From a virus: a DNA stretch of 64,000 nt. The notes under the pieces were generated by a model that worked only from the letters and a program-made list of their open reading frames with translations, had not been told where the DNA came from and made no database searches. Of this stretch, positions 7,975 to 56,186 are shown in pieces. The translations under genes were made by a program, and so were the position numbers. How positions within the stretch are numbered: position 1 is the stretch's first letter; the number at the start of each line of letters is the position of its first letter. Location of the stretch: positions 132,878 to 196,877 of the IMG/VR virus record IMGVR_UViG_3300030419_007641; one strand, written 5' to 3'.

Positions 7975-8622
7975 TTATTTTTGCCAATCATTTACGAATT
8001 GATAAAATTCACCTCTTGTAGCTACATCACCTAAGAAGTCTTCACTCAATCTACTTGTCTTCATTTCACAACCGTCATGTTTAATACCTCTAAGACAAGC
8101 GCAAGTGTGAGTAGCAGATATCATAACAGCAACTCCTTTGTTACCTTCACAGATTTCGTCAATAGCTTTATGAATTTGCATTGTAAGACCTTCTTGAATT
8201 TGTGGCCTTCTACCATAATGCTCAACAATGCGGTTAAGCTTACTTAATCCAATAACTTTACCTTCCTTAGATGGAATATAAGCTACATGAGCTCTACCGG
8301 TAAATGGTAAGTGATGATGTGAGCAAAAAGACTTAACAGGAATACCACCTTGAAAGACCATTCCATCGTAACCGTCAGAAGGAAAAGCAGTTACATTAGG
8401 TAAATCATTATAACACCCAGCAGCTAAGTCATTTACAAAGGCTTTAGCTACACGTTTAGGGGTATTACTGCTATTAGGATCATTTCGCCAATCGATTCGT
8501 AGAGCATCGAGATATTTCTCATAAGCTGTAGCTGCATCTTCAATTACTTTAAGTTTTTCTTCTTCTGTTAAAGGCATGTTACCATTTGCGGTGGGTAATT
8601 TTGTAATTATAGTACGATCCAT
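7975..8622 (-). CDS. folE: GTP cyclohydrolase I
   Basis: TPKRVAK, SFCSHHHLPFTG, GLSKLNRIV, RPQIQEGLT and HTCACLRG motifs. Confidence 0.95.
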   Translation of the reverse strand: MDRTIITKLPTANGNMPLTEEEKLKVIEDAATAYEKYLDALRIDWRNDPNSSNTPKRVAKAFVNDLAAGCYNDLPNVTAFPSDGYDGMVFQGGIPVKSFCSHHHLPFTGRAHVAYIPSKEGKVIGLSKLNRIVEHYGRRPQIQEGLTMQIHKAIDEICEGNKGVAVMISATHTCACLRGIKHDGCEMKTSRLSEDFLGDVATRGEFYQFVNDWQK

Positions 8623-8672
8623 ATAATATAATTATATATTCAAATATTAATGTTCAAGACTAAATATTATAT

Positions 8673-9245
8673 ATGTCAAGGCTATCCCAAAAAAAATTAT
8701 TAGAAGAGGGTATAGGGTCTGTACTTAAGGGTGTAGGGCGCGGTGCACTTGCTGGTGCTGGTGCTGCTTTCGATTATTTAGCTCCTCAAGAAGTTAAAAC
8801 AGAGCTAGGTAGATTAAAAGATATAGGCAGTAAAATCGCGAGAGGTTATACGAAGGGAGCTGGTTCTACTCTTAAAAATCTAGATAAAGCTTTAGCGAAT
8901 GTGGGGTTAATACGTACCGGTAAGCCTCGTGGTGACATTAAAAAACAAGCTGATGTATCTGTTGCTAGGTTGATCCATGATCCCAATACTAAAAAAGCAA
9001 TACCTGGGCAAGCTTTAAAAGACCCGGCTATATTCAAATTTGAAAACGGTGAATACCGGATAATAAAAGCGCCAGGTGTAAGGGTTGATCAAAGACAGCA
9101 AAGACAGCAAAAACAGCAAAAACAACAACCAGCATCAACTCCAGCTCCAACCCCAGCTCCAACCCCGACACCGGCACCTGGTGTTGTTACATCTAGCTTC
9201 TCTCAAAAAGATCTGCTAAGACAGTTGCAAATAGTCAGAGGCTAA
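8673..9245 (+). CDS. Hypothetical late protein with a Gln-rich/PAPTP linker
   Basis: TAAATA at 8661-8666; SQKKLLEE at the N-terminus and SQKDLLRQL at the C-terminus. Confidence 0.55.
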   Translation: MSRLSQKKLLEEGIGSVLKGVGRGALAGAGAAFDYLAPQEVKTELGRLKDIGSKIARGYTKGAGSTLKNLDKALANVGLIRTGKPRGDIKKQADVSVARLIHDPNTKKAIPGQALKDPAIFKFENGEYRIIKAPGVRVDQRQQRQQKQQKQQPASTPAPTPAPTPTPAPGVVTSSFSQKDLLRQLQIVRG

Positions 9246-9334
9246 TTAACTATCCGAGAGAGGGACGAGGGAATCATTTTAAAATCTTCATACTAGTTGA
9301 TTTTTTTGCAAAACCTATTAATATATAATTACGT

Positions 9335-9979
9335 ATGAGCGCTTACACTTCATCAAAACAATTCGAATTAGGATCAACAGCATTTCGTCAATGGAAAGCG
9401 GATCATAGTCACTGCAAATATATTCATGGATATCAACTCAAAACACAACTAACATTTGGTTGCCACAGTCTAGACGATAAAAATTGGTGTGTTGATTTTG
9501 GTGGTTTAGATACACTTAAAAAAACTCTAAGAAATCAATTTGATCATACTGTCGTTGTTGCTGGAGATGATCCTGCTTTAGAGGCATTTGAGGAATTAAG
9601 TGAAAAGGGTATTATACAACTTCGAATAATGGTTGAAGGAGTAGGTGTTGAAAAATTTGCAGAATTCGTATTTAAGACAGCTGATGCATTTGTTGATGAA
9701 GCTTCAGAAGGTAGGTGTTTTGTTGTAAAGGCCAAAGTGACGGAGCATGAAGATAATTGGGCTGAATATACAAAAGAGGACAAAGAGGCAGCTAGTAACC
9801 ATGAATGTTGCCAAGATACTACAGATACTACAAAACAAGAAACAGATCCAGCACCAGTACCCGAAAATCAGTCTAAGCCGAATAATCCACATCCACAGGC
9901 AGGTCGTCAAGGAGCTAATGTAGGTCCAAATGTAACGCCTGGTAAAGGTAACTGGTTTGCTGGTACATCCTGGGGTTAA
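9335..9979 (+). CDS. queD: 6-carboxy-5,6,7,8-tetrahydropterin synthase with a C-terminal extension
   Basis: HCKYIHGY, VDFGGL, FDHT and EHEDN motifs of the PTPS/QueD family. Confidence 0.9.
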   Translation: MSAYTSSKQFELGSTAFRQWKADHSHCKYIHGYQLKTQLTFGCHSLDDKNWCVDFGGLDTLKKTLRNQFDHTVVVAGDDPALEAFEELSEKGIIQLRIMVEGVGVEKFAEFVFKTADAFVDEASEGRCFVVKAKVTEHEDNWAEYTKEDKEAASNHECCQDTTDTTKQETDPAPVPENQSKPNNPHPQAGRQGANVGPNVTPGKGNWFAGTSWG

Positions 9980-10708: not shown

Positions 10709-10749
10709 GTATTATTATTTAGTTGAAAAACACCATTATTAGCTATAAT

Positions 10750-11511
10750 ATGTTAATGGATTGTGATAAAGAAACTTTAATAGTATCTGATGATAAGGCA
10801 TTTTATACACTAGAAGGTGAAGGTGAATATGTAGGTGAACCTTCTGTGTTTTTTAGATTGTCTATGTGTAATCTAACATGTCAAGGGTTTGCTTCAGAAG
10901 ATTCGCCTTATGGATGTGATTCATATATTTCTTGGTCTGTTAAAAACAAAATGACTTTTAACGAAATATTTGAATTCATGAAAGAAAACAAATTTATTGA
11001 AAAACTTAAAGCTAATGCAATTCTAAAAATAACAGGTGGCGAGCCACTAATTCAACAAAAACAATTACTAAAATTTATAGAAGTATTTATCGATAAATAT
11101 TGTTTTATTCCACGAATTGATTTTGAAACTAATGCTACATTAATGCCGGATAAGAGGTGGAAAGAAGAATATAGAGCTACATTTACTACATCACCAAAAT
11201 TAACTACCAATGGAGATCCTGAAGAAAGATCTTATAAGCCTGAAGTATTAAAGTGGCATTCTGATAATGGATCCGGATTTAAGTTTGTTATTGCTACATC
11301 TGAAGACATAGAGGAAATTTGGCGCAAATATGTCGAAGATGATAAGGGTATTAATGTACCTTTAGATCGTATTTGGTTTATGCCATGTTGTGGTAGCAGG
11401 AAAGAACATGTAGAGAAGGCAGTTGCAGTAGCAGAGTATGCTAAAGCTATGAATGTAAAATTCTCACCCAGATTGCATCTGTTAATTTGGGATATGGCAT
11501 TAAAAGTTTAA
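10750..11511 (+). CDS. queE: 7-carboxy-7-deazaguanine synthase (radical SAM)
   Basis: FYTLEGEG, CNLTC..(insertion)..CDS, ITGGEP, ETN, SPK and SPRLH motifs. Confidence 0.9.
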   Translation: MLMDCDKETLIVSDDKAFYTLEGEGEYVGEPSVFFRLSMCNLTCQGFASEDSPYGCDSYISWSVKNKMTFNEIFEFMKENKFIEKLKANAILKITGGEPLIQQKQLLKFIEVFIDKYCFIPRIDFETNATLMPDKRWKEEYRATFTTSPKLTTNGDPEERSYKPEVLKWHSDNGSGFKFVIATSEDIEEIWRKYVEDDKGINVPLDRIWFMPCCGSRKEHVEKAVAVAEYAKAMNVKFSPRLHLLIWDMALKV

Positions 11512-11512
11512 A

Positions 11513-12316
11513 ATGAATGAGTTTGATATAGTTATTGCAGTTGGTCCAAATGATGTTGATTATGTACACAATCAAATTAAGTGTACCAAAAAAAATATTG
11601 TTGGTTATAGGAATATTTACCTTATTCCCTATGATCCTACTTTTAAAATAGAGGGCTGCACTACTATTGCAGAGATAGAATTTCCATTTTCTAAGCAAAC
11701 AGTAGCTCAATATCACGGTAAATTAGAACGTAATGGTTGGTACTTGCAGCAATTGCTAAAGCTTTATGCAGGTATTATAATTCCAGGTATACTAGATAGG
11801 TATTTAGTTATTGATAGCGATACATACTTTGTAAAACCAACTTCATTTATTACTAGTGATAATAAATGTTTATATTCACATGGTAGTGATATTCATGGTC
11901 CATATTTTGATCATATGAAGCGGTTACATCCCTCTCTAAAGAGAGTAAATTACTCTGGTATATGTCATCATATGATGTTTGAAACAAAATATGTAGAGGA
12001 AATGTTCAGCTTAATTGAGGGTAATAAATCATCAGTACCATTTTATAAAATATTTTTAGAATGTGTAGATAAGGATGATTTTACATTATCCGGAGCCTCT
12101 GAATATGAAATATATCTTAACTATATGTTATTATATCACCCGGAATCTATTGAGATACGCTTTTTACCGAACGTGGAAGCTCGATTTAATAGAAACGGTA
12201 ATCAAGATCCGGATTGGAAAAAAAAGGCTCGCTTAACGTTAGGTGAAGATCTTGCAAATAGCCCCCCTAAAGAATGTGAAGGTCATAATTTTATCTCTTG
12301 CCATTGGTATAACTAA
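11513..12316 (+). CDS. DUF6492-like GT-A fold glycosyltransferase
   Basis: GWYLQQLLKLYA, YLVIDSD and SEYEIY motifs. Confidence 0.65.
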   Translation: MNEFDIVIAVGPNDVDYVHNQIKCTKKNIVGYRNIYLIPYDPTFKIEGCTTIAEIEFPFSKQTVAQYHGKLERNGWYLQQLLKLYAGIIIPGILDRYLVIDSDTYFVKPTSFITSDNKCLYSHGSDIHGPYFDHMKRLHPSLKRVNYSGICHHMMFETKYVEEMFSLIEGNKSSVPFYKIFLECVDKDDFTLSGASEYEIYLNYMLLYHPESIEIRFLPNVEARFNRNGNQDPDWKKKARLTLGEDLANSPPKECEGHNFISCHWYN

Positions 12317-12332
12317 CACATATATATATATT

Positions 12333-13091
12333 ATGAGAATTGCATTTTCAGGGACTGGTAATAGTGGTAAATCAACTCTTTTAAAGAGCTTTATGTATAC
12401 TTGGGATAATTATACCACTCCTAAAGAAACATATAGAGACGTTATTACTGAGGAAAATTTACAGCATTCATCTAACACTACAACAGATACCCAAGAAAAA
12501 ATCCTAAATTTTATGATTGATCAGCTTCAATTAAATGATAAGGATGATAAAATAGCTTATGATAGATGCCCATTAGATAATATTGCTTATTCAATGTGGT
12601 GTCATGATAAAGGCATTAAAGGATTTACAAAACAATTTGTAACTAAACAAATTGCTCTTATGAGAGAGTCAATGAGACATCTAGATATTGTTTTTTTATG
12701 TAGATTTGATGAAAAGCAAGCCGTTGAAGATGATGGATTTAGAGACACTGATATTAACTTTATTAAAGAGGTAGATAATATTTTTTATTCTTTATATAAT
12801 CAATATATTCAAAATCCAGAAGCAGATATATTTTTCCCTGCTGGTGATACCCCTTGTATATTACCGTTGCCAAATGATCAGCAACAACGTATTGATTTAA
12901 TTGCAGAGTATATTGCACCGGGTGGTGACTTAATTAGTGATGAAGAATCAATTCTAAATCCTAATAATTTAAACGAATTGGAGGCATTAGTTAGGGAGCA
13001 AAAGGCTGCACTCGAACAAGAAGAACGTGAAAAGGAATTGCAAAGAAAGTTTGGACTACCTGATGGAGGTTATCCACCAATAACGTTATGA
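12333..13091 (+). CDS. P-loop nucleotide (dNMP-type) kinase, AAA_28-like
   Basis: GTGNSGKST Walker A and DRCPLDNIAY motifs. Confidence 0.75.
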   Translation: MRIAFSGTGNSGKSTLLKSFMYTWDNYTTPKETYRDVITEENLQHSSNTTTDTQEKILNFMIDQLQLNDKDDKIAYDRCPLDNIAYSMWCHDKGIKGFTKQFVTKQIALMRESMRHLDIVFLCRFDEKQAVEDDGFRDTDINFIKEVDNIFYSLYNQYIQNPEADIFFPAGDTPCILPLPNDQQQRIDLIAEYIAPGGDLISDEESILNPNNLNELEALVREQKAALEQEEREKELQRKFGLPDGGYPPITL

Positions 13092-13921
13092 GTGAGAGTA
13101 TAGGTATAGGAATTATTACCTGTGATCGGCCTGATTTTTTTACAAAATGTAGGGATTCTATAGATGATAATTCCTATAATCATATTGTTGTCGTAAATGA
13201 TGGTAATGATGATGTGGTTAATCCTAGAGCACCAGTTATTAAAACCGGGGGTAGAGAAGGAGTAGGTAAGGGTAAAAATAAAATTTTAAAGTATCTATAT
13301 GAAAAGGGGTGCGATTATATGTTCTTATTAGAGGATGATATGATAATGCTAGATAATTCTGTTTTTACAAAATACATACAAGCACATAAGGCATCCGGAA
13401 TACATCATTTTAACTATGGGCCCGGCTCCCCGTTTAATAGAAAGCAAACTATTGAAAATTTTGACCTACACAACAGACACGAGTTAGATCAACATTCAGA
13501 ACCAAATCCTCGTTTAATTGTAGATTATAAAGATATAAAAATTTCTTTATTTACACATACTGTGGCTATGTTTTCCTTTTTTACAAGAGAAGTAATAGAT
13601 AAAGCAGGTTATATTGACGAAGAATTTTATAATGCCTGGGAACATGTAGATCATACATACAGAATAATTAAAGAGCAAATGCATCCACCTTTTTGGTATT
13701 TTGCTGATATATATGACAGTCATAAGTATATGACTGAAGCTCCAGATGCTATTGATAAGTCTTCTATTGCTGGTGACTCTGAACAATGGAAAAAGAATGT
13801 ATATGGGGGTAGAGAAATTTATAAACGAAAACATGGACACTATCCTAATATGCCCCCGCATACAACTAAAGAAGAAGTTTTACAAACCTTAAAACAGATT
13901 AAAAATGATTATTCCAAATAG
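13088..13921 (+). CDS. GT2-family glycosyltransferase
   Basis: IITCDRP, VVVNDG, FLLEDD and EHVDHTYR motifs. Confidence 0.8.
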   Translation: MSESIGIGIITCDRPDFFTKCRDSIDDNSYNHIVVVNDGNDDVVNPRAPVIKTGGREGVGKGKNKILKYLYEKGCDYMFLLEDDMIMLDNSVFTKYIQAHKASGIHHFNYGPGSPFNRKQTIENFDLHNRHELDQHSEPNPRLIVDYKDIKISLFTHTVAMFSFFTREVIDKAGYIDEEFYNAWEHVDHTYRIIKEQMHPPFWYFADIYDSHKYMTEAPDAIDKSSIAGDSEQWKKNVYGGREIYKRKHGHYPNMPPHTTKEEVLQTLKQIKNDYSK

Positions 13922-14675
13922 CTGTATATTTTATTTAGTAAATGACCAAGAAATACATATTAAAAGGCTAGAAGATAGCCTAAGATGTCTTAAGAACAAT
14001 TTTTTAAGACAGTATCCATATCCTGTTGTATTTGGTCATGAAGGTATTTCCAGCCCAACTAAGGCTAGAATTCGAAACGCTGCTCCGGAAAATTGTTATT
14101 TTCATAAAGTAAACTTTTCCTTACCATCTTATAGTCAAGATATAAAAGATAAAATTCCAGAAAAGTTTAAAGGTCATTGGGATGATAATGCATTTTTCTC
14201 AATGGGATATAGGCATATGTGTAGATTATTTTCCGGAGGACTCTACGAGGATAAATTTTTTAATAACGTTAAATACCTAATGCGTCTAGATTGTGATTCA
14301 TATATTACCAGTGAAGTTTCAGTAGACCCATTTAAAGTTATGGCAGATAAGCAAGGTATTTATGGTTATGTTGGGGAAGAGGAAGATATGGATTATGTTA
14401 TTGAAGGACTATTTGACTTTGTAGAAAAAGTTTTACCAACAGATAAAAATCTTCAATATAATAAAATGTATCAAACACATTTTTTTATTGAAGACTGTGA
14501 ATGGTTTCGATCAGATCCATATATGAGCTATTTTAAAGAAATAGACAAAACAGGTAACATTTATATTAAAAGATGGGGTGATGCACCTATAAAATATCAA
14601 GGTGTTATGAGACTAGTACCAAAAGAAAAGCGCATCAAATTTCATTTACCATATAGACACGGAGGTGATTTATGA
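13905..14675 (+). CDS. GT15 (Kre2/Mnt1-like alpha-1,2-mannosyltransferase)
   Basis: YRHMCRLFSG, YLMRLDCDS and IYIKRWGDAPI signature motifs. Confidence 0.8.
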   Translation: MIIPNSCIFYLVNDQEIHIKRLEDSLRCLKNNFLRQYPYPVVFGHEGISSPTKARIRNAAPENCYFHKVNFSLPSYSQDIKDKIPEKFKGHWDDNAFFSMGYRHMCRLFSGGLYEDKFFNNVKYLMRLDCDSYITSEVSVDPFKVMADKQGIYGYVGEEEDMDYVIEGLFDFVEKVLPTDKNLQYNKMYQTHFFIEDCEWFRSDPYMSYFKEIDKTGNIYIKRWGDAPIKYQGVMRLVPKEKRIKFHLPYRHGGDL

Positions 14676-15415
14676 AAATAGCTGTGTTGGTTCCTACAAG
14701 AGAGAGAATGAATAACAGACTTACTCTGTTATTTTCTATATTAACTACTGTCAACAATATTGATAATGTTAATATATATTATGGTGTAGATAAGGATGAT
14801 CCTACGTTAGATACTATTAAAAGAGTTGCATCAGCTATACCAGCTCTTAAAATTGTAGAAATTGATAATAAAAATAAGTTTTTGGGCCTGGGTATATTAT
14901 GGAATAAGTTAGTAAAGGCTTCTAATGAGGAAATTATATCTATGATAGGTGATGATATGGTATTTAAAACGCCTGGATGGGATACAATGCTACTTGAAGA
15001 ATTTAATAACATGCCCAAAGATAAAATTCAAGCTATACATTGCAATGATGACTACCATGGTGCAAAATTAGCTGTTAATTTATTCTGTCATAGAAAATAT
15101 GTTGATGTGCTGGGTTATTTTATGAGAGAGGAATTTTTAATCAATTGGGTTGATCAATGGCTACATCAAACGTTTTCTGCATTTGGCAGATTAAAATATA
15201 GAGATGATATTATGATCGAGCACAGACACTGGGTATTTGGTAAAACCCCTAGAGATAATACAGCTGAAAGAATGAATAATGCTAATGGTGGGAGCGAGGT
15301 AATAAGTGATAAATTATGGCACGAATTAGTAGATGAGAGAATTAGCGATGTTAAAAAACTTAGTAAATATTTAAACATGGAACCCGACTGGGGTAAGGTT
15401 GATACTGGGACGTAA
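14672..15415 (+). CDS. GT2-like glycosyltransferase
   Basis: LVPTRER, DKDD, MIGDD and WVDQW motifs. Confidence 0.75.
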   Translation: MKIAVLVPTRERMNNRLTLLFSILTTVNNIDNVNIYYGVDKDDPTLDTIKRVASAIPALKIVEIDNKNKFLGLGILWNKLVKASNEEIISMIGDDMVFKTPGWDTMLLEEFNNMPKDKIQAIHCNDDYHGAKLAVNLFCHRKYVDVLGYFMREEFLINWVDQWLHQTFSAFGRLKYRDDIMIEHRHWVFGKTPRDNTAERMNNANGGSEVISDKLWHELVDERISDVKKLSKYLNMEPDWGKVDTGT

Positions 15416-15417
15416 AA

Positions 15418-16158
15418 ATGGGTGAAATAACCACACAAGATAAGCTAGGTGCATCTATTTCACATTTAGTAAAGGAACTTAAGTTAAAGGTAAATCTCGA
15501 AATAGGGTCTTGGGATGGTACTGGCGCTACTAGATGTTTTATAGATGCTATGAAAGATTTTTCTAGAAAATCTCTAACATGTTTAGAAATAGACAAGAAA
15601 AAATTTAACAGTTTAGTTAAAAATGTAGGAGATTATTCATGGGTTAAGTGCTATAATAGATCGTCCATAAATTGTAATAAACTAATTGATTTCGGGTTTG
15701 ATAGAATTTGGAACTCGCTTTTTAATCCACTAGTACATTTTACAGATACTAAAAAAGAAACTGTGGAGGAGTGGTACACCGGTGATGTAAATTTAATGAA
15801 AAAATATCCGCAGGGATTTTTAGAGGAAGATCATACAATATACGATGCAGTTTTAATTGACGGTGGTGAATTTACAGGTTATTTTGAATTTGAACTTTTA
15901 AAAAATCGAACAAACGTGTTCTTTTTAGACGATTCTTTTAGATCATACAAAACAAATAAAGCAGCTATTTTATTATCAGAAGATTTAGAGTGGGATTGCT
16001 TGGCGTATGAAAAGAGTGTTGAAGGGCTAGATTGGGGATTAAGTTCTTATGTAGAAAAGGAAGAAGAGGTACCACAGCATATCTTAGAGGCAATGATGGA
16101 ACATCGAAAAAAGGTAAGAAACGGATTTGCTATCTTTAAAAGAAAAAAATTTATATAA
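15418..16158 (+). CDS. Class I SAM-dependent methyltransferase-like protein
   Basis: LEIGSWDGTG, LEID, VLIDGGEF and LDD motifs. Confidence 0.7.
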   Translation: MGEITTQDKLGASISHLVKELKLKVNLEIGSWDGTGATRCFIDAMKDFSRKSLTCLEIDKKKFNSLVKNVGDYSWVKCYNRSSINCNKLIDFGFDRIWNSLFNPLVHFTDTKKETVEEWYTGDVNLMKKYPQGFLEEDHTIYDAVLIDGGEFTGYFEFELLKNRTNVFFLDDSFRSYKTNKAAILLSEDLEWDCLAYEKSVEGLDWGLSSYVEKEEEVPQHILEAMMEHRKKVRNGFAIFKRKKFI

Positions 16159-16159
16159 T

Positions 16160-16870
16160 ATGGATAGTAATTCCTTAGGTATAATTCAGCCTGGTAAATT
16201 AGGAGATTTAATTATAGTATTACCTGCTGCAAAATATTTGTATGATAAGGGCTATACAATATATTGGCCCGTATACGAGCAATTTGCTAATATGTTCAAC
16301 GAAGTTGTTGATTATGTTAATTTTATTCCTGTAACCGATAATGTTTATAAATGTGTTGAAGAATCTTATAAAAAATTACATGATCTAAACGTAACTAATA
16401 TTAAAGATATTGCAGCAACTTTTCCAGGTAGTACATCGACAGACGAATATGTAGAGTTAGGTGACGGTAAGATACAGCCTTTTGATGTTTTTAAATATGA
16501 TAAGCTAGGAGTACCTATAGAAGAAAAATGGAATATAACAGTTAACAGAAATTACCAAGAAGAAGAAAAACTCTATAAAAAATTGGTAAACAACGAAAAA
16601 TATGCAGTAGTATGTTTACGGCATTCTAGAGGGGAATTAAATGTTAAATTTAATGAATCCGACGGGCAAATTATTCACATAACAGATGATTATAATATTT
16701 TTTATTGGCTAAAAATTTTAGAAAACGCACATACAATAGCATTAGTTGAAAGCAGTATGTCTAACTTGGTAGAACAATTTAGCTTCGATTGTAAAAAGAT
16801 ATTGTTTCGAAAGATTGATAATTATTTTATGAAATTACCGGTCATGAAAAATAAGTGGAAAATAGTATGA
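16160..16870 (+). CDS. GT9-like (heptosyltransferase-type GT-B) glycosyltransferase
   Basis: N-terminal QPGKLGDLII..P..KYL pattern and ESSMSNL motif. Confidence 0.55.
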   Translation: MDSNSLGIIQPGKLGDLIIVLPAAKYLYDKGYTIYWPVYEQFANMFNEVVDYVNFIPVTDNVYKCVEESYKKLHDLNVTNIKDIAATFPGSTSTDEYVELGDGKIQPFDVFKYDKLGVPIEEKWNITVNRNYQEEEKLYKKLVNNEKYAVVCLRHSRGELNVKFNESDGQIIHITDDYNIFYWLKILENAHTIALVESSMSNLVEQFSFDCKKILFRKIDNYFMKLPVMKNKWKIV

Positions 16871-18466: not shown

Positions 18467-18467
18467 A

Positions 18468-19241: not shown

Positions 19242-19244
19242 TAA

Positions 19245-22278: not shown

Positions 22279-22280
22279 AG

Positions 22281-23258: not shown

Positions 23259-23262
23259 ACGT

Positions 23263-25892: not shown

Positions 25893-25922
25893 ATCTATAT
25901 AATAGATATTAACCGTAATTTA

Positions 25923-47053: not shown

Positions 47054-47091
47054 TATGTACTAGTATTTAATACATATAGTATAAATTTAAA

Positions 47092-48027
47092 TCACTGTTT
47101 TGGAGTTTTTATATGTGGTACATCAACTTCACTTAAAGTATGATGTAGCAACTTTTTATGAGATGCGCGCTCTGGATTAATGTCAATACCACCTCTACGA
47201 GCGTATAGACAACGTACATTTAGTTCTTCCGGATTAATTGTATCCTTTATACGCTTATAGATAGCTTCACAAATTTCTTCATGAAAGTGACACTCATCTC
47301 TGAAAGAAACAATATATTGCAACAGTGAAATAGGGTCTACAGTATTTTTACCTTTTATATAAATATAAACATCTCCCCAATCAGGTTGCGAAGTAACACG
47401 GCAATTAGACTTAAGTAAAGCGCTATGATAATAAACTTTATCTGAAGGAGCATCCTCTATCTCTTGAAGCAAGTTTGGATCTTCTGAATATACAGAAAAT
47501 TTCACCTCATCGACAGGGTATTCATCTTCTAATGTAATATAATTAGGAGTACAATCTACACTATGCATCCACTCCAGTTTTGCGTTAAACATATTAACAT
47601 CACCTAAAACTCGAGCATTACTATGCACTTTAACTAGTACTTTAGTTTCAAGGAGCGCACTTAAATCAGATGCTGCCATTTTGCTAATTTGATCTAAAAC
47701 CTCTTCTGCACTATCACCCAGTTTAGTCATGTTAAATGAGTTAAAATACAACTTAATAGACTTAGATTCAACAATATACTTACTATCACAAGAATATACA
47801 ATCTTAGCTACACCAACTACCGGTAGTCCATTATTAGTAAGAGCTGATATTTCATATCCATTCCATGTATCATTACCGACAAAAGGTAGGTTATTATCTT
47901 CTAATCCTAGATGTGTCCTATTTGATTGACGAGGCTCTCGTACAAGAAGACCCGGATCATATGATGATTTATACTCAGACGTTTGTCCTAAATGTTTACT
48001 AACATTACTATTATCAAGTTTAGCCAT
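47092..48027 (-). CDS. queF: NADPH-dependent preQ0 reductase (bimodular QueF)
   Basis: VESKSIKLYFNSFN, LKSNCRVTSQPDWG, FHEEICE and YARRGGIDINP motifs. Confidence 0.95.
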   Translation of the reverse strand: MAKLDNSNVSKHLGQTSEYKSSYDPGLLVREPRQSNRTHLGLEDNNLPFVGNDTWNGYEISALTNNGLPVVGVAKIVYSCDSKYIVESKSIKLYFNSFNMTKLGDSAEEVLDQISKMAASDLSALLETKVLVKVHSNARVLGDVNMFNAKLEWMHSVDCTPNYITLEDEYPVDEVKFSVYSEDPNLLQEIEDAPSDKVYYHSALLKSNCRVTSQPDWGDVYIYIKGKNTVDPISLLQYIVSFRDECHFHEEICEAIYKRIKDTINPEELNVRCLYARRGGIDINPERASHKKLLHHTLSEVDVPHIKTPKQ

Positions 48028-48029
48028 AA

Positions 48030-48617
48030 TTAAATTTTAATATCGATATCACGTTTAGCAAGAGTTGACTTAATAGTCTCTAATCTTTCCTCTACACTAC
48101 CCTCAAGCATTACAACTTCACTATCTATATCCCCTCTTTCGAAATATATATTAAATATATTAATAATTTGATTTCGAAATCCCTTATCTACACTTCTCTC
48201 TCCATCATCTATTAACTTTACATCTTTAGGAGATGTATAAAAAATAATGTCATATTTATCTTTTAAATTTTGCCAAATTAGTTCACAGGCATCATAACAA
48301 CGCCTACTGATTTTATTGTTATCGAGCAACCATAGAGAATATACAATACCGTCTAATCCACACCTATCAAAGATCTGATGCACACCTCTAATTAGATGAT
48401 CAGCTTTATTTTTATAAACATTTCGAACATGCTCTGTCATAATAAGCATTTGAGTTAGATCACCGCCGCTCTCATTAATAGGCATGTTATACTCACGACT
48501 TACCAGTCTTGTAACTTCAGGTACAAATTCGAATGGGTAGCTACCATTTTTTTCATATAATGCTTTGAGTAAGGTAGTTTTACCAGTACTCTGAGCTCCA
48601 GTAAACGAACAAATCAT
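48030..48617 (-). CDS. P-loop nucleotide kinase (AAA_28-like)
   Basis: GAQSTGKTT, DRCGLDGIVY and DDGER motifs. Confidence 0.75.
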   Translation of the reverse strand: MICSFTGAQSTGKTTLLKALYEKNGSYPFEFVPEVTRLVSREYNMPINESGGDLTQMLIMTEHVRNVYKNKADHLIRGVHQIFDRCGLDGIVYSLWLLDNNKISRRCYDACELIWQNLKDKYDIIFYTSPKDVKLIDDGERSVDKGFRNQIINIFNIYFERGDIDSEVVMLEGSVEERLETIKSTLAKRDIDIKI

Positions 48618-48625
48618 ACTATATA

Positions 48626-49162
48626 TTATAAGTGTTCCTTAAGAAATTCCATCCAAGCATCAAAAGACGTCTTTCTTAATGTATCATAAGTTTTATCTAT
48701 ATTGAGGACATCACGCGTTCTTGCAGATTTTTCTACTATAATCTCACCTGCATCAACCTCTGCTACTACTTTATGAACCACACTACCAATTTTAGCGTAT
48801 GAAGCTATATTTTTCCATGCACGTTTTTGCGGATCTTTACCTTTTAACTCAGGATATTTTGTTATAAGTCCCGGGTGCCCATTGTATATATTATACATCT
48901 TGCACTTATCCGGGGGCACTATTCTTAACCACCCATTTAAGGTAATGAGAGTATCTTTTTTATCGAATTGTATATCCTCTAAGATATCCAATGTTTTTGC
49001 TTCATCATTATTAACCCTAAAATCTACTTCTATATTCGGATTAACCTTGTCCAAATTAGCATTGGTAATAACAAAATCCGGTTTTCTATTTAACTTTGTA
49101 GATAGGTCAACTATCTCAGATCCTGTTTGTGAAAACAAAGCTACCCAATTTTTATATCTCAT
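48626..49162 (-). CDS. PurN-like formyltransferase, probable preQ1 formyltransferase (DpdN-like)
   Basis: LFSQTGS, L.GWLRIVP, YNGHPG and H.V..EVDAG motifs; in the same gene run as queF. Confidence 0.8.
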   Translation of the reverse strand: MRYKNWVALFSQTGSEIVDLSTKLNRKPDFVITNANLDKVNPNIEVDFRVNNDEAKTLDILEDIQFDKKDTLITLNGWLRIVPPDKCKMYNIYNGHPGLITKYPELKGKDPQKRAWKNIASYAKIGSVVHKVVAEVDAGEIIVEKSARTRDVLNIDKTYDTLRKTSFDAWMEFLKEHL

Positions 49163-49542
49163 TATAGATATGTTAATGCCAACCAGTTAATAATCAAGTG
49201 TATGGTATTGTCGCATGCGATTAAAAGCCATGCAGACAAATATTCCGGTACTTCTTTATGATACCCGGTATCTTTGCAATCTTCCCATTTATGCCAATAG
49301 CGCTTAGGCCCTAGCCTACTTTTAGCAAATACAACATATCTTGCAAGCCGGTACCGATCAATAAAAAAATGAGTTATACAAATAACTAACAACGCCCATA
49401 CAGAGGGGCATAAAATTAAAAACGGGAGCGAATATGTAAGAGCGTGCGCGGCTGCAGCCTTATTACACTTGGTCTTATTTAGCGCCATCCAATCACTCTG
49501 GAAAAGGTAGTCACCAATCAAATGTAGAATTAATTGGAGCAT
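49162..49542 (-). CDS. DUF3307-family membrane protein
   Basis: HLIGDYLFQSDWMA.NK, H..TY, THF.ID and DNTIH motifs. Confidence 0.8.
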   Translation of the reverse strand: MLQLILHLIGDYLFQSDWMALNKTKCNKAAAAHALTYSLPFLILCPSVWALLVICITHFFIDRYRLARYVVFAKSRLGPKRYWHKWEDCKDTGYHKEVPEYLSAWLLIACDNTIHLIINWLALTYL

Positions 49543-49603
49543 ATTTATTATTATTATTTTATAGTGGGAAGCCGCTTTTTCAAGGTCTATTATAAATAAT
49601 ATT

Positions 49604-49885
49604 GTGGAAGATTTTTTAAAGGTGGTAACTGACGTTGGATTTCCGATTGCAGGCGCACTAGGGTGCGGTGCTTTTGTTTTTATTATTCTAAAATTTATAC
49701 TTAATGAAATTACTAGTGGGGTGAAAGGTATAGGAGGGATGATTAAATCCTTAGAAAATAGAGTACAGACAATGAATAATGATATTGTAAAGATAGATAC
49801 ATTAGTGTCTTATGCGTTTAACAAACAACCTAATTTGGATAGATTAGCTGCAAATGAAGGAAAGGAGGATGCCAGAAAGGACTAA
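49604..49885 (+). CDS. Small single-TM + coiled-coil protein (holin-like?)
   Basis: GFPIAGALGCGAFVFIILKFIL followed by a heptad region; TATAAATA upstream. Confidence 0.6.
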   Translation: MEDFLKVVTDVGFPIAGALGCGAFVFIILKFILNEITSGVKGIGGMIKSLENRVQTMNNDIVKIDTLVSYAFNKQPNLDRLAANEGKEDARKD

Positions 49886-50181
49886 TGAGCGAGGAAATAG
49901 TACAAGCTATTAATGATTTTGGATTTCCGGTGATTGCCGCTGCAGGACTTGGTTATTTTGTTTATTATACTTGGAATTGGGTAGTTAAAGATATTAAGCC
50001 GGTTTTAGATGAATCTACCGGTACGTTAATAGGATTAATAGATAGAATTAGAATGTTAGACAATGATATGATTAGGCTCAACACAAAGATACAGATGATC
50101 TTACAAGAACAAGAGCAACTATTGCGCACAGAAAGAAGACAGAATAGACGGAAAGAAAATGTTCTATCTGATGAGCTGTAG
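49885..50181 (+). CDS. Paralogous small TM + coiled-coil protein
   Basis: GFPVIAAAGLGYFVYY.W and RIRMLDNDMIRL, matching the upstream gene's pattern. Confidence 0.6.
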   Translation: MSEEIVQAINDFGFPVIAAAGLGYFVYYTWNWVVKDIKPVLDESTGTLIGLIDRIRMLDNDMIRLNTKIQMILQEQEQLLRTERRQNRRKENVLSDEL

Positions 50182-50211
50182 ATTATATATTAATAGGAGA
50201 TAAATACGGAC

Positions 50212-50673
50212 ATGAAATATATTTGGTTATTATTATTAATGAGTGGTAGTACCATGGCAAATGAATTAAAATTTAGGTTTAAGTCACCTTCGTTTAATGG
50301 TATTGGTTATAGCGCTCATAAAATAAATCTAGAAAATATTTCCGCCGCTAGGAAAAAGACTATAAAAGATGAACTAAAGTCTTTATCAATCCAAGCTAAT
50401 TTAGCTAACAGTAGGAAGCCGTTAAATGTATTCTTAACAAATCTCCAATCTAGAATTTATTCTGAACTCTCAAAACAAGTTACTGAGCAGCTTTTTGCTG
50501 AAACTGGTAATGATTCGGGTTCATTTGATTTAGATGGTAATATCATATCCTGGTATAAATTAGCTGATAAAATTAATTTAACAGTTACAGATACTGATGG
50601 AGATCTTACAACTATACTAATACCTGTAGGATCTCTTTTATTACCGGAACCTAATGAAGCCACTACTGAATAG
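50212..50673 (+). CDS. csgF: Curli assembly protein CsgF-like
   Basis: Signal peptide; ELKFRFKSPSF.G, LQSRIYSELS..LF and GSF.LDG motifs. Confidence 0.85.
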   Translation: MKYIWLLLLMSGSTMANELKFRFKSPSFNGIGYSAHKINLENISAARKKTIKDELKSLSIQANLANSRKPLNVFLTNLQSRIYSELSKQVTEQLFAETGNDSGSFDLDGNIISWYKLADKINLTVTDTDGDLTTILIPVGSLLLPEPNEATTE

Positions 50674-51466
50674 CCTTTTAGCCTCGACGTTACTATTTTC
50701 CGGTTGCACAGCCTTTCAAGGTGCAAAACAACCGCCATTTATCGCACCGGCACCATTAACGGAACGACTAAATAGTCTACCGGAACTAGATGGTGAACCA
50801 ATTTATTTAGGTGTTTCTAATTTTAAAGATTTAACTGGTCAAAGAAAACAGTCTGATAATTATGCTAGCTTTTCTGCTGCTGTAACTCAAGGAGCTGAAG
50901 CATGGTTAATTGAATCACTGTTAGAATCAAACGGGTGGTTTAAGGTACTAGAAAGAGGCCAACTTGATAGTATTATGCGTGAGCGCGCAGTAGTACAACA
51001 AACGCGACAAGATTTTACAGATGACGATGACACAGGGTTAAAGCCTATGCTATTTGCAGGGCTTCTGGTACATGGAGGTATTATTTCATATGATACTAAT
51101 ACTGTATCCGGGGGTATAGGTGCCGCGTATCTGGGTATTGGTGCACATGAGCAACATAGAAAGGACGTTGTAACAGTTTCTATAAGACTGGTAAGTACAT
51201 TAACTAGTGAAATTCTTTTATCATCTACAGTCTCAAAAACTATATATTCCACAGCGCTGGGCAGTGACATGTTTAAGTATGTCAAAGATGCATTAAACCC
51301 ACTAGAAATAGAAATAGGGTTTGCTAAAAATGAATTAGTTTCAGTAGCTACCAGAGCAGCCATCGATTTAGCAATATTAAATTTAATTAATAAGGGCGAA
51401 GAAAAGAAGATGTGGAAATTTAAGGAGCCTGAAATTACCGAAGAGCCTATAGAGGAAACAGAATAA
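50654..51466 (+). CDS. csgG: Curli secretion channel CsgG lipoprotein
   Basis: Lipobox LFSG-C; FKDLTGQRK, AVTQGA, WF.VLER and GGIISYDTN motifs. Confidence 0.92.
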   Translation: MKPLLNSLLASTLLFSGCTAFQGAKQPPFIAPAPLTERLNSLPELDGEPIYLGVSNFKDLTGQRKQSDNYASFSAAVTQGAEAWLIESLLESNGWFKVLERGQLDSIMRERAVVQQTRQDFTDDDDTGLKPMLFAGLLVHGGIISYDTNTVSGGIGAAYLGIGAHEQHRKDVVTVSIRLVSTLTSEILLSSTVSKTIYSTALGSDMFKYVKDALNPLEIEIGFAKNELVSVATRAAIDLAILNLINKGEEKKMWKFKEPEITEEPIEETE

Positions 51467-51493
51467 AGAGTATTTTTTTGACTAAATACTTGT

Positions 51494-52285
51494 ATGAAAT
51501 TTAAATCTCTTTTAACTGCTTTATGTTTATATGCTGGCAGTGCGCTCTTTGCTAGTAACGAAATTTACTTAGATCAAATTGGTAGTTCGGGTATTTTTAA
51601 CATATCTCAAATTGGTTCATCAAATAAATTAGGCGAAGGTACAAATCGATCAAGAATTGAAGGTGAAGAAGTTGTATTTAATGTAGCTACAATTGGTAAT
51701 GAAAATCTTATCGATATCGATTCAATTGGTAATGAGGAACTAGTAAATTTAAATCTTGAAGGTGACGCAAATGAGTTAATTCTCGCGATAGAGGGTGATA
51801 AAAATGAAGTAAACGCATTCATTGCTGGTGACTCTAACAATGTATTAATCGCAGGCAATGAAGATGATACACACAAAGCTACAGTTCATAATGGTTTAAT
51901 TAACCTAAACATCGAAGGAGCGTCTAATGATGTTGATTTATTATTATTTGATACATCATATACCTTTACCGATTATCATATTGCCGGATCATTAAATGAT
52001 GTTAGTAGTTATCAAGAAGGTCACGGAGGTCTAATTGGACATTCACAGCTAGTTGATATTTTTGGTAGTAGTAATAACTTATTGGTATCACAAGTAGGCT
52101 CTGAAAGTCAGTTTATTGAGCTCTCTATTCTAGGAAATGAAAATAACTACCAAATATTCCAAACAGATGGTGCGTTTGATCCGACATTTATGCCCGAGCA
52201 AACTGACAATAATGTCATTCCGTTTAATGAATTTAGCAACCCAGATGGTCCTCCGCAAGCCGGTGGTCAAGGCGGTAACGAGTAG
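51494..52285 (+). CDS. Curlin-like secreted beta-solenoid repeat protein
   Basis: Signal peptide; ~11-aa repeats x-h-x-h-x-(Q/I)-x-G-x-x-N (IYLDQIGSSG, FNISQIGSSN, VNLNLEGDAN and others). Confidence 0.75.
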   Translation: MKFKSLLTALCLYAGSALFASNEIYLDQIGSSGIFNISQIGSSNKLGEGTNRSRIEGEEVVFNVATIGNENLIDIDSIGNEELVNLNLEGDANELILAIEGDKNEVNAFIAGDSNNVLIAGNEDDTHKATVHNGLINLNIEGASNDVDLLLFDTSYTFTDYHIAGSLNDVSSYQEGHGGLIGHSQLVDIFGSSNNLLVSQVGSESQFIELSILGNENNYQIFQTDGAFDPTFMPEQTDNNVIPFNEFSNPDGPPQAGGQGGNE

Positions 52286-53174
52286 TTTATTATTCTTACT
52301 ATTTCTAACACCTGCTTTTGGTGAAATAGGTAATATCACCTCTCAAACTAGAGCTGCGCAAATCACTAGAAAGGGCGATAAAATATTAACTGAAGTTAAT
52401 ACGCCTGTGGAGATGCGCGACTTAATTCAAACTCTTAAAGGTAGGGCTAATATTAAATTTGTTGATGATACTAAAGTAAGTGTCACAGAATACTCAAAGT
52501 TATTAATAGATGAATTTGTTTATAATCCGGAAAAGAAGACCGGTAAACTTTCCCTTAAAGCCGCTTTAGGTACTATTAGATATTCTTCTGGTAAGATCGC
52601 AAAAAATTCTAGACAAAATGTAAAAATTAAATCGCCTACTGCTTCTGTATCTGTCAGAGGCACAGATTTTACTATGAATGTGCAAGAAGATGGTGCTACT
52701 AGTTTTTTACTTCTCCCTTCTACAGATACAGATGGAAGCTCATACGTCGGGTCTATAGATGTTTCTACACTGGGTGGTACAGTTACTTTAGATCAAGCAT
52801 ATGAAGCAACTACAGTAACAACAGCAATTGCACCGCCATCGCCTCCGCAGGTTATACAGGAAGATGGAGCAGTAAATGGTAAAAAACAAGACGTGAAAAA
52901 GGATAATAACGAAGATAAAAAGCCTACAGATGAAAAAGAGGAGGATAAATTCGACGAAATTAAAATAAAGAAAAAAGAAACACAGATTATGAACACATTT
53001 TTAAAAATGAATGATGGTCGATATGTTTTCTTTTCTAAAGATAAAGACAATATGATTTCTCTCATAGTTGAGGATGGGAGCAATGTAACAGTAAATTATG
53101 ATAACAGGGGCAGCATTATTAACGCAAAATTTAACTCAGGTAATAATGTTTTATTTAACATTAAGCAACAATGA
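52245..53174 (+). CDS. FecR-domain secreted protein
   Basis: Signal peptide from the ATG at 52245; I.F.DDT.V.V.E.S.L.IDEFVY and PTASVSVRGTDF motifs. Confidence 0.8.
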   Translation: MVLRKPVVKAVTSSLLFLLFLTPAFGEIGNITSQTRAAQITRKGDKILTEVNTPVEMRDLIQTLKGRANIKFVDDTKVSVTEYSKLLIDEFVYNPEKKTGKLSLKAALGTIRYSSGKIAKNSRQNVKIKSPTASVSVRGTDFTMNVQEDGATSFLLLPSTDTDGSSYVGSIDVSTLGGTVTLDQAYEATTVTTAIAPPSPPQVIQEDGAVNGKKQDVKKDNNEDKKPTDEKEEDKFDEIKIKKKETQIMNTFLKMNDGRYVFFSKDKDNMISLIVEDGSNVTVNYDNRGSIINAKFNSGNNVLFNIKQQ

Positions 53175-55210
53175 AAACGTTTAATATTAAAAACTATATT
53201 ATATGCATATTTTTTACTATGCTATTGGTTACATTAAGAATGGTTGACCCTTTCTTTATCGAAACATTAAGATTAAAAGGTATAGATTATTATCAAACAA
53301 AACAAGAAAAGGTATTATCAGAAAATATTTCTATTATAGAAATAGATGAAGCAAGTCTAGATAAAAATGGGCAATGGCCATGGAGTAGAGAAATAATAGC
53401 TAAAGGTGTTGAAAAGGCCTTTGCTAATGAAGCGCAATTAGTAGTTATTCCAATACTATTTGCTGAAAAAGATCGTTTGGGTGGCGATGAATATTTTACT
53501 AATGTACTAAGTGAGGCACCGGTTATTATAGGGCAGTCAGCTAGTATAAAGGGTAAGGGAAAGCCTGTCCCTAGGGGACTTGCTAATATAGGAGAAAGTT
53601 TAGATGGGTGGCTATATGATTATCCGGAGGCAATTGGACCTGTAAAAGAACTAGGGGAGCATGCTGCCGGTGTTGGTATGATATTAACGGCGCCGGAATT
53701 AGATGGTGTTGTAAGAAGACTGCCTCTAATAGTACATGTACAAGGAGAAGCCTACCCAACAATACCTTTAGAAGTAATAAGGCTATTTGCTGGCGAGCAA
53801 TCCTATCAGGCTAAAGTTGGTCTGGGTGGTGTAGAGGCTGTTAGAGTGCCTGGATTTGATCCTATTATTACAGATGCAAACTCTAGAGTGTGGTTAAACT
53901 ACAAATACGAATTTGATAAAGTATCATTTGCAGATGAAGATTGGTCAGCTGTAAGAGGTAAAATTGCCGTAATAGCATTAACAGGTGAAGGGCTTGCTAA
54001 TACAATTGCTACTTCAACTGGTGTAAAATATGGGCACGAAGTAACTAGTTCAGCGTTGCAAATGTTAATTGACGAATCTAGATTACAAAGACCTGTTGAA
54101 TCAACAGTATATGAAATATTAATAACAGCAGCATTTTGCTCTTTGCTTATTATAGGAGCTTTATGGTTATCGTACATAGCCAGCTTAGCTATAATCTCTG
54201 TTTCATTGTTTGCTGGGCCTTATATTGGTAACTGGTTGTTTAATAGTAATGGGTGGTTAATTGATTATACTTGGCCAGCTGCTTGTATTTTTATAACCTG
54301 GTCTGTGGCTACATTTATAAGATTTGTAACTGAAAGTAAATCAAAGCAACAAATTAAGAAACAATTTGAACATTATCTTGCTCCGCCTATAGTTAAGCTA
54401 TTGCAAAAAGATCCATCGTTGCTCAGACTAGGTGGAGAAACAAGAGAGCTATCTATACTGTTTAGCGATCTAAGAGGGTTTACAACAATAAGCGAACACT
54501 TTAAAGCAAACCCTCAAGGGCTTACAGAATTAGTTAACAAGTACCTAACTCCTATGACAGGATGTGTAATACAGCATAATGGTACAGTAGATAAATTTAT
54601 TGGTGACGCATTAATGGCATTCTGGAATGCTCCTCTTGATGTTGAGGATCACAAAGTACATTGTATTAATTGCGGGTTAGAAATGTTTGATTTATTAAAA
54701 AAGCTTAATAAAGAGATAAAGGATCAAGAACTACCAGAGCTGAAAATTGGAGTAGGTATTAATTCCGGAGATGTAGTTGTAGGTAACATGGGATCAGAGC
54801 AAAGATTTGACTATACATGTTTAGGTGATGCAGTAAATCTTTCCTCGAGGCTAGAGGGCCAGACTAAGGAATATGGAGTAGGTCTTATCGCAGGCCAAGG
54901 AACAGTACAAGGAATAGAAGATAAATTTAATTTTATTGAATTAGATATGATAGCAGTTAAAGGTAAAAAGGAAGGCGTGAGGATATTTACTGTACTAGAA
55001 GATGGTATAGACGTAGCACATCATAATAAATTTTTGGAGTTTTATCGGACCCGTAATTGGTCAGGCGCATTAAACTTATTGGAATTAAACATTATGACAT
55101 ATCCTAATCTCGAAACATATTATAGTATGATGAGAGAAAGGATATATCTCCTAGAAAAGTCTAATTTAGATAGCGACTGGGATACAATTTATAGAGCTAC
55201 TTCGAAGTAA
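53171..55210 (+). CDS. CHASE2-domain membrane adenylate cyclase (class III)
   Basis: IDEASL...GQWPWSR (CHASE2); TM helices; FSDLRGFT, DKFIGDA and GNMGSEQRFDYT.LGD.VN.SSRLEG; the Lys/Asp pair implies ATP specificity. Confidence 0.92.
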   Translation: MKTFNIKNYIICIFFTMLLVTLRMVDPFFIETLRLKGIDYYQTKQEKVLSENISIIEIDEASLDKNGQWPWSREIIAKGVEKAFANEAQLVVIPILFAEKDRLGGDEYFTNVLSEAPVIIGQSASIKGKGKPVPRGLANIGESLDGWLYDYPEAIGPVKELGEHAAGVGMILTAPELDGVVRRLPLIVHVQGEAYPTIPLEVIRLFAGEQSYQAKVGLGGVEAVRVPGFDPIITDANSRVWLNYKYEFDKVSFADEDWSAVRGKIAVIALTGEGLANTIATSTGVKYGHEVTSSALQMLIDESRLQRPVESTVYEILITAAFCSLLIIGALWLSYIASLAIISVSLFAGPYIGNWLFNSNGWLIDYTWPAACIFITWSVATFIRFVTESKSKQQIKKQFEHYLAPPIVKLLQKDPSLLRLGGETRELSILFSDLRGFTTISEHFKANPQGLTELVNKYLTPMTGCVIQHNGTVDKFIGDALMAFWNAPLDVEDHKVHCINCGLEMFDLLKKLNKEIKDQELPELKIGVGINSGDVVVGNMGSEQRFDYTCLGDAVNLSSRLEGQTKEYGVGLIAGQGTVQGIEDKFNFIELDMIAVKGKKEGVRIFTVLEDGIDVAHHNKFLEFYRTRNWSGALNLLELNIMTYPNLETYYSMMRERIYLLEKSNLDSDWDTIYRATSK

Positions 55211-55367
55211 AAAAGCTTACTGCTGCCCAAGCAGGTGCAACTGCTACACCTATACCTAGTAACCATACTAGCATATAGAGTAAAAATCTTAAAATAAAGT
55301 TACTAACTAAAGGAAAAAATTCTTTATCATTAGCGCGAATAATTATTTCCTGGTGTTCGCTGTTCAC
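55197..55367 (-). CDS. Small single-TM late protein, 56 aa, not in the ORF track
   Basis: GTG start; MNSEHQEIIIRANDKEFFPLVSNFILRFLLYMLVWLLGIGVAVAPAWAAVSFFTSK; TAAATA 5-6 nt upstream. Confidence 0.55.
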   Translation of the reverse strand: MNSEHQEIIIRANDKEFFPLVSNFILRFLLYMLVWLLGIGVAVAPAWAAVSFFTSK

Positions 55368-55379
55368 TTAATATATTTA

Positions 55380-56186
55380 TTAAGAAATAAGATTTTTGAA
55401 CTCTTTTACATTATGAACAATGTCCGTTACTTGATCAGCTGTTACGGAATGATCAATTAAGTCAGCTAACATAATATCTGGCTTTTCCAATAGCCCAATA
55501 TTTTTATAGTACCTCAACCCTTTAATACCGGCAACAATAGGATTTGAAGTATCTAAAGATCTAATATTTTTTATATCTTTATAATTTTTAAATTCTTTAG
55601 CTAGAGAACATCCTAATAAGTGGTGCGGCTTATTGTGATTCCAATGACCATCACTAATTAATTTTCTAATAAAAAATTCTCTACCGTTACACATTCTTTC
55701 TAAAGTAGCTCTTCGAAGACCTTTACCTGGATTTTTCGAATAACCTACTGTCTGATACCATGAATAATCAAATGAAATAGCTATATAATCTGCGAAATCG
55801 CTCATATATTTGTAACAATCTACTAATTGTTGATACGTACCACCCTGTACAACCCCAATTCTCAGACCAGGTAATTTCATATAGTCCCTTTTAAAATTAT
55901 TAAAAGCGCCTATTGTTCGTAGAGACTGCTCTAATACGTCTGGTACAACATAATAAGTTGGTTTAAGTTCTTCTATATACTTAGCAAATTTTTCAGAATC
56001 AAACGCTGTTTTTAATTCAAAGATAGAATTATCTAAAAGTACCTCTCTTCCCATACCTAAAGAACACTTAAAAAATGAATAATACTCTGGATGTGTTTCG
56101 AATAAATGAACTAGTGCATAATCATAGTCATTATATTCTCGTGATTCTTCTAAAAAACTAATAGGCGTTTCATGACTTACTAACAT
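55380..56186 (-). CDS. TGT-fold transglycosylase, DpdA-like (7-deazaguanine insertion)
   Basis: LLDNS (TGT DSG equivalent), VVPDV, GVVQG, HHLLG and SLDTS (nucleophile Asp equivalent); no C-terminal Zn site. Confidence 0.6.
   Translation of the reverse strand: MLVSHETPISFLEESREYNDYDYALVHLFETHPEYYSFFKCSLGMGREVLLDNSIFELKTAFDSEKFAKYIEELKPTYYVVPDVLEQSLRTIGAFNNFKRDYMKLPGLRIGVVQGGTYQQLVDCYKYMSDFADYIAISFDYSWYQTVGYSKNPGKGLRRATLERMCNGREFFIRKLISDGHWNHNKPHHLLGCSLAKEFKNYKDIKNIRSLDTSNPIVAGIKGLRYYKNIGLLEKPDIMLADLIDHSVTADQVTDIVHNVKEFKNLIS

Follow-up and report, generated by a model that had tools for sequence, protein, structure and literature searches.

A predicted formyl-preQ1 DNA-modification pathway with a conserved dpdA3-dpdN-kinase-queF cassette in an uncultured marine T4-like phage

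Does an uncultured marine phage replace the guanine of its DNA with a modified base, and, if so, with which one? The question is raised by the window analysed here, a 64,000-nucleotide stretch at the very end of an IMG/VR virus contig of 196,877 bp (record IMGVR_UViG_3300030419_007641, positions 132,878 to 196,877; completeness estimate 93%) and that carries dispersed genes of a 7-deazaguanine pathway. A first-pass annotation of this DNA had placed six such genes in the window, namely those for FolE, QueD, QueE, and a bimodular QueF, together with one for a small formyltransferase and one for a protein with the fold of tRNA-guanine transglycosylase (TGT), and domain searches and modelling confirm all six at the positions given. 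The genes belong to recognizable families, their catalytic motifs are intact, and dpdA3, dpdN, a kinase gene, and queF form a cassette that is conserved in other phages. The phage very probably encodes a complete pathway of the type described in the Flavobacterium phage immuto, in which DNA guanine would be replaced with a 7-deazaguanine, most likely formyl-preQ1 (fdPreQ1).

In the proposed pathway, FolE, QueD, QueE, and QueC would convert GTP to preQ0, which QueF would convert to preQ1. The formyltransferase DpdN, which carries the Asn-His-Asp triad of PurN, would formylate the aminomethyl group either before or after insertion, with formyl-folate as the likely donor, as for PurN, and DpdA3 would swap guanine for the modified base. 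By analogy with other DpdA3 phages, the replacement would be near complete and the DNA would be shielded from restriction enzymes; we infer both the product and the anti-restriction role from homology to immuto.

The enzyme predicted to carry out the base exchange is a minimal TGT-fold protein of 268 residues encoded at 55380..56186 on the minus strand. Set against the DpdA families, as the first-pass annotation had proposed, it is assigned by homology and modelled fold to DpdA3, a subfamily of three phage groups with complete guanine replacement, whose named members are immuto gp65, CP220 gp056, and phiST CGPG_00065 (founding DpdA3) (PMC10516641). The protein shares 46.8% identity with immuto DpdA and ~46% with the proteins of CP220-type Campylobacter phages, and the family profile aligns with phiST CGPG_00065 in hhalign with a probability of 97.3% (E 2.7e-11). 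In its AlphaFold model (predicted local distance difference test score, pLDDT, 89.9), the top 50 matches in the PDB are all tRNA-guanine transglycosylases (Foldseek E ~3e-8, TMq 0.50-0.68), and a BFVD search with the same model matches a phiST protein at TMq 0.84. The (beta/alpha)8 barrel is common to this protein, bacterial TGT, and bacterial DpdA, but DpdA3 is ~100 residues shorter than the matched TGT chains, and it contains a single invariant cysteine and lacks the C-terminal zinc-site cysteine cluster. The protein matches neither the Pfam TGT model nor any model in PADLOC, a library expected to model the bacterial Dpd system, and sequence searches of the PDB with DpdA3 and with the cassette kinase returned nothing useful.

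The formyltransferase gene (48626..49162, minus strand) encodes 178 residues with a Formyl_trans_N domain (7.6e-9), and the protein is a predicted preQ1/dPreQ1 formylase of the PurN superfamily. It is homologous to immuto gp67 (YP_010114479; 44% identity, E 9e-38, 142 bits), the protein named DpdN in the 2023 Nucleic Acids Research paper (PMC10516641), and among 50,697 phage records the only matches are those of immuto. Comparison with solved PurNs yields only ~21-25 bits, and the protein scores 43.7 bits against the NCBIfam PurN equivalog TIGR00639, for which the cut-off is 150.1. A hidden Markov model (HMM) built from 131 family members gives 236.5 bits for the window protein, 231.8 for immuto DpdN, and 57.9 for E. 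coli PurN, and a search of 1.84 billion representatives with DpdN returns 433 matches at E <= 0.001, which make up a discrete family; true PurNs nowhere reach this threshold in that search. Residues N94, H96, and D137, each kept by 90% or more of the 131 sequences, align with N106, H108, and D144 of PurN. The conserved S11/G14 segment (FSQTGSE) aligns with the N-terminal SGNGSN loop of PurN, which we take to contact the phosphate of glycinamide ribonucleotide (GAR). DpdN and PurN, the GAR transformylase, thus have in common the fold superfamily, the N-x-H...D catalytic triad, and the "GS" of the aligned loop; DpdN differs in its length (178 rather than 212 residues), in the absence of the PurN C-terminal segment, and in a family-specific ELKGKDPQ insertion. 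The gene is co-encoded with dpdA and with the FolE-QueF set, as in group-1 DpdN systems, and PADLOC returns no match to it. From the immuto identity, the HMM scores, the failure of the PurN model, and the conserved residues, the formyltransferase is DpdN by every in silico feature, as the HMM comparison envisaged in the first-pass annotation also indicates, and its formylase activity is predicted.

The genes for preQ0 synthesis make a complete set in this one genome. FolE, a GTP cyclohydrolase I of 215 residues (7975..8622, minus strand; Pfam PF01227 GTP_cyclohydroI, 8.8e-46), is 61% identical to immuto FolE over 196 residues and keeps the zinc motif CSHH. QueD (9335..9979, plus strand; 214 residues) is a 6-carboxytetrahydropterin (CPH4) synthase by its matches to Pfam PTPS (6.9e-16) and to the QueD-like PHROG (3.5e-33), with 38% identity to immuto QueD. 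In place of the canonical signature CxxxHGH it has C27-KYI-H31-G-Y33 (CxxxHGY), a variant also present in immuto QueD; the catalytic cysteine is retained, unlike in the decarboxylase paralogue DpdL (LxxxHRH). The window protein also bears a low-complexity C-terminal tail of 65 residues, rich in Glu, Thr, Pro, Asn, and Gly (window 9785-9979), which immuto QueD lacks. QueE (10750..11511, plus strand; 253 residues; alternative start at TTG 10723, second ATG at 10756) is a radical S-adenosylmethionine (SAM) 7-carboxy-7-deazaguanine (CDG) synthase by TIGR03963 (1.6e-14) and the QueE-like PHROG (8.7e-43). Its cysteines follow the pattern C39-x3-C43-x12-C56, followed by DS, instead of the canonical CxxxCxxC or Cx14CxxC, and those of immuto QueE are analogous (Cx3Cx7C-DS). 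Since immuto shares these QueD and QueE variants and its DNA contains ~345,000 fdPreQ1 per 10^6 nucleotides and no deoxyguanosine (dG) (PMC10516641), the variants are no argument against function.

The fourth gene, queC, had been reported as absent from the window, and it was indeed found elsewhere, on the same contig, 11.3 kb before the window start (G000:C1:120816-121583, minus strand), where it adjoins a RecA/UvsX-like gene. Its product matches PF06508 (5.9e-53) and the PADLOC QueC model and exceeds the NCBI QueC cut-off (TIGR00364, 153.7 bits against 150.3). QueF, a bimodular NADPH-dependent preQ0 reductase of 311 residues (47092..48027, minus strand), matches QueF_N (8e-34), QueF (1.7e-23), and TIGR03138 (4.8e-76), is 46% identical to immuto QueF, and has both the ESKSIKLY motif and the catalytic cysteine C209-RVTSQPD.

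Between dpdN and queF lies a gene that the first reading overlooked (48030..48617, minus strand), encoding a small P-loop protein of 195 residues with a (deoxy)nucleoside/nucleotide-kinase fold (AAA_28, 8.1e-15). This kinase shares 32% identity with immuto gp68, which occupies the same cassette position, and 33-35% with the kinases of Campylobacter phages, which directly follow DpdA3; CP220-type phages, which are devoid of DpdN and QueF, still have the kinase there. The best matching folds of its model (pLDDT 85.8) are deoxyadenosine kinase, dTMP kinase, deoxycytidine kinase (dCK), and the ribosylnicotinamide kinase (RNK) of NadR. A role as a DpdB-like ATPase that powers base exchange in DNA was considered and set aside, because the fold instead matches small-molecule deoxynucleoside and dNMP kinases; PADLOC gives only sub-threshold P-loop matches for the protein. 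In phiST, CGPG_00066 (L019:8382-8861), a protein encoded beside DpdA3 and annotated as hypothetical, matches AAA_18 at 29.8 bits against a cut-off of 29.4. The main text of the 2023 paper makes no mention of any kinase (PMC10516641).

The order dpdA3-dpdN-kinase-queF recurs in immuto and in the metagenomic loci L012, L014, L016, and L017, and the order dpdN-kinase-queF in the window is that of immuto. In the more distant relatives L012 and L014, the cassette is compact and lies beside baseplate and ribonucleotide reductase (RNR) genes. L016 encodes QueC, one protein of unknown function, a DpdA3::DpdN fusion (P0344, L016:2262-3605), the kinase, and QueF, and L017 encodes QueD, QueE, PolB, QueC, dUTPase, a 268-residue DpdA3-sized protein, a DpdN::AAA_28 kinase fusion (P0322, L017:8001-9044), QueF, and GCHY-1. 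The reverse fusion, P-loop kinase::DpdN, is found in P0333. In a further protein, P0312, DpdN is combined with DUF1599 ("nucleotide modification associated domain 1").

The scatter noted in the first-pass annotation holds for this genome, in which the pathway genes span ~68 kb, with folE, queD, and queE 36-38 kb from the core and queC 19 kb further on. It is in part the secondary split of an otherwise compact cassette, however. In the window and in L003-L006, which belong to its lineage, a module encoding CsgF, CsgG, an unknown protein, FecR, and a CHASE2 cyclase lies between dpdA3 and dpdN together with a DUF3307 gene. This curli-like module (window 49604-55367; 5.8 kb) comprises CsgF (1.7e-16), CsgG (4.6e-48), a 263-residue unknown protein, FecR, and a CHASE2 and class III cyclase protein, and is conserved in related marine contigs. 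The DUF3307 gene (49162..49542, minus strand) encodes a small membrane protein (PF11750, 6e-8; phrog_6676, 3.2e-43), and its stop codon overlaps the dpdN start; the gene is conserved ahead of dpdN in L003-L006, and immuto lacks it. As the cassette is compact in relatives, the dispersal of the core is attributed to the secondary insertion of the curli-like module, and the overall scatter is thus partly secondary.

Several points weigh against an fdPreQ1 pathway of the immuto type. The pathway is deduced from its genes, which do not form one operon in this genome; the proteins in common with immuto are only ~32-61% identical, and QueE aligns with its immuto counterpart at only ~20% identity; and even in immuto the activity of DpdN is only predicted (PMC10516641). 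Moreover, a stand-alone class II glutamine amidotransferase (GATase) gene (C1:118403-119065) lies 1.75 kb from queC, which makes another end product conceivable. The base might be archaeosine (dG+), made by a split GATase and QueC, or plain dPreQ1, with the formyltransferase acting on some other substrate; the GATase matches, weakly (E ~1e-5), the Gat domains of phage Gat-QueC archaeosine synthases, and it has no immuto homologue. We regard this outcome as improbable, since many phages have a conserved unit that unites queF and dpdN with dpdA3, and since the GATase scores best against the N-terminal domains of GlmS and PurF, is separated from QueC by an antisense gene instead of being fused to it, and is encoded by a gene that overlaps one for a GT-A glycosyltransferase (the pair at G000:C1:117753-119065, outside the window). 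A GATase-like open reading frame (ORF) also directly follows queC in 253-kb Vibrio phages, whose QueC resembles the VH7D type, and relatives of VH7D were found to contain dPreQ1/mdPreQ1 and no dG+ (PMC10516641), which fits a supply of ammonia to QueC as the simpler reading of the GATase. That the formyltransferase is instead an ordinary PurN of purine synthesis, carried as an auxiliary metabolic gene while the que genes serve tRNA queuosine, is suggested by its Formyl_trans_N match and by the name PurN given to some homologues by the Joint Genome Institute (JGI), but appears highly implausible. The protein fails the PurN model by more than 100 bits, true PurNs fall below the E 0.001 threshold in the whole-library search, a family member is fused to DpdA3 in P0344, and the TGT-fold partner is DpdA3 and not a tRNA TGT, as judged by the missing Pfam TGT match and zinc-site cysteines.

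With the same genes and the same product, a different route, which we entertain only tentatively, would start from free (deoxy)nucleosides or nucleotides, on which the base would be exchanged or assembled; phosphorylation of the product by the cassette kinase would then allow the phage polymerase to insert it at replication. The published scheme is instead the post-replicative editing of finished DNA. A Gpt-like purine phosphoribosyltransferase (PRT) could recycle the released guanine or activate the base. The C-terminal part of such a PRT is encoded at 63739..63999 (minus strand; found by tblastn with immuto gp60), adjoining the RNR genes, where it may serve guanine salvage, and a full-length diverged copy at C1:7258-7695 matches Pribosyltran (3.2e-18) and scores 107 bits, below the cut-off of 138, against the xanthine PRT model NF006613. 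The route would explain why immuto, CP220-type phages, this lineage, L012, L014, L016, and L017 all carry the kinase within the DpdA3 cassette or adjoining it, why phiST has another small kinase-like P-loop gene (AAA_18) at its DpdA3, and why DpdN-kinase fusions exist in both orders. It is also consistent with the alignment of the DpdN FSQTGSE segment with the PurN loop that presumably contacts the GAR phosphate, with the presence of Gpt-like PRT homologues in each of the DpdA3 phage groups that were examined (immuto, phiST, and CP220-type phages), and with the 7-amido-7-deazaguanine (ADG) nucleoside seen in CP220-infected cells (PMC10516641). Against it, the known substrates of TGT-family enzymes are polynucleotides, no MazG, HD, or dUTPase_2 enzyme capable of clearing dGTP is recognizable in this genome, large phages commonly encode dNMP kinases for general reasons, phages that lack DpdA3 can also have PRT homologues, and co-location is not mechanism. 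Among the papers searched, none links a PRT to DpdA. It is possible, though less likely than not, that the kinase travelling with DpdA3 is a core component not described before, perhaps alongside the Gpt-like PRT, and that complete guanine replacement is achieved by a step in the nucleotide pool, either ahead of replication or in the course of it.

The transcription of the fdPreQ1 genes was considered through promoter motifs. A generic sigma-70 scan does no better than shuffled sequence (93 sites against 85 expected), and the stricter motif TTGAnn-N15-18-TAnAAT has 18 matches, seven of which end within 40 nt upstream of a start codon on the same strand (P ~2e-7). Early-type promoters had been proposed for folE, queD, queE, and the TGT-fold gene; the motif is present at folE, queE, and the TGT-fold gene and missing at queD. 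The putative promoters are TTGAAC-N15-TATAAT at 8631..8657 (minus strand), 9 nt upstream of folE; TTGAAA-N15-TATAAT at 10723..10749 (plus strand), which abuts the queE ATG at 10750, ending 1 nt before it; TTGAAA-N16-TAAAAT at 49556..49583 (minus strand), 14 nt upstream of the start of the DUF3307-dpdN-kinase-queF unit; and TTGAAT-N16-TATAAT at 56193..56220 (minus strand), 7 nt upstream of the dpdA3 ATG, with 10 of the 12 consensus positions. As the -10 hexamers end 1-14 nt before the start codons, leaderless or very short-leader mRNAs are suggested, and their early timing is proposed by analogy with T4.

The genome that carries the pathway is that of an uncultured ~190-kb marine T4-like phage. 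Genes for the portal and major head proteins, a helicase, RNR, and ClpP are present, and L012, a relative, has a capsid gene of the T4 Gp23 type; no tRNA genes are present in the window, and megablast with 47000-56200 gave no nucleotide-level match to deposited phage records. The ends of the contig are colinear, the first 7.5 kb with the last 8.2 kb, at 50-87% amino-acid identity (window 55830-63972 against G000:C1:1-7500), both carrying dpdA3, ClpP, RNR, and PRT genes. The truncated second dpdA3 at C1:3-359, which has 74% amino-acid identity to the window copy, is on account of this colinearity not taken as a paralogue. Most probably the contig wraps around a circular genome and its two ends come from related strains joined in assembly, so that the true genome size is ~189-190 kb; a related, probably circular contig measures 190,081 bp.

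Other genes of the window include those of a ~17-kb glycan-type run that immediately follows queE (11513-28072) and whose target may be the virion, the host surface, or DNA. They include genes for DUF6492, GT11- and GT47-like transferases, an aminotransferase, a methyltransferase, a radical SAM/SPASM protein, and an MptE-like protein, followed by a minus-strand heptose-type operon (RpiB::nucleotidyltransferase, PfkB kinase, cupin, transaldolase, and HAD). The ORF run at 11513-24950 was considered as a set of tandem paralogues, but its members have no mutual BLAST matches and make up a glycan-synthesis cluster. The GC content of the window ranges from 30 to 43%, with the maximum (0.43) in the 40-44 kb block, in which the 3' end of a 1346-residue minus-strand ORF without a PHROG match (43013-47053) lies.

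One cultured Flavobacterium phage and three uncultured phages had been known to have the fdPreQ1 system, which is part of a large, mostly marine family. At 90% identity DpdN falls into 2654 clusters and at 50% into 433, DpdA3 comprises 3965 clusters, and Tara and other ocean metagenomes are the source of many of these. Large marine T4-like phages may therefore commonly have DNA free of guanine, which would have consequences for sequencing, for restriction-based methods, and for models of host defence. Through the invariant kinase and the gene fusions, the question of how replacement becomes complete can be approached in concrete tests.

Among known systems, that of immuto is the closest, since homologues of all seven proteins are present in both phages, together with the dpdN-kinase-queF order, the QueD and QueE variants, and the Gpt-like PRT. 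The two differ in that the host genome here is that of a marine T4-like phage and not of an immutovirus, that dpdA3 is split from dpdN by the curli-like module and the DUF3307 gene, with the pathway genes widely spread, that no MazG homologue was found, and that an additional stand-alone GATase gene lies near queC. Phages CP220 (dADG, Campylobacter) and phiST (7-deazaguanine, DG, as dDG; Cellulophaga) likewise have DpdA3, a small P-loop kinase beside it, and a Gpt-like PRT; in contrast, they are devoid of QueF and DpdN and end at ADG or DG, so that their final base is different. By its sequence relationships, the pathway described here joins the published DpdA3/DpdN fdPreQ1 system as a new and diverged member, carried by an abundant lineage of marine phages and with fdPreQ1 as its probable product.

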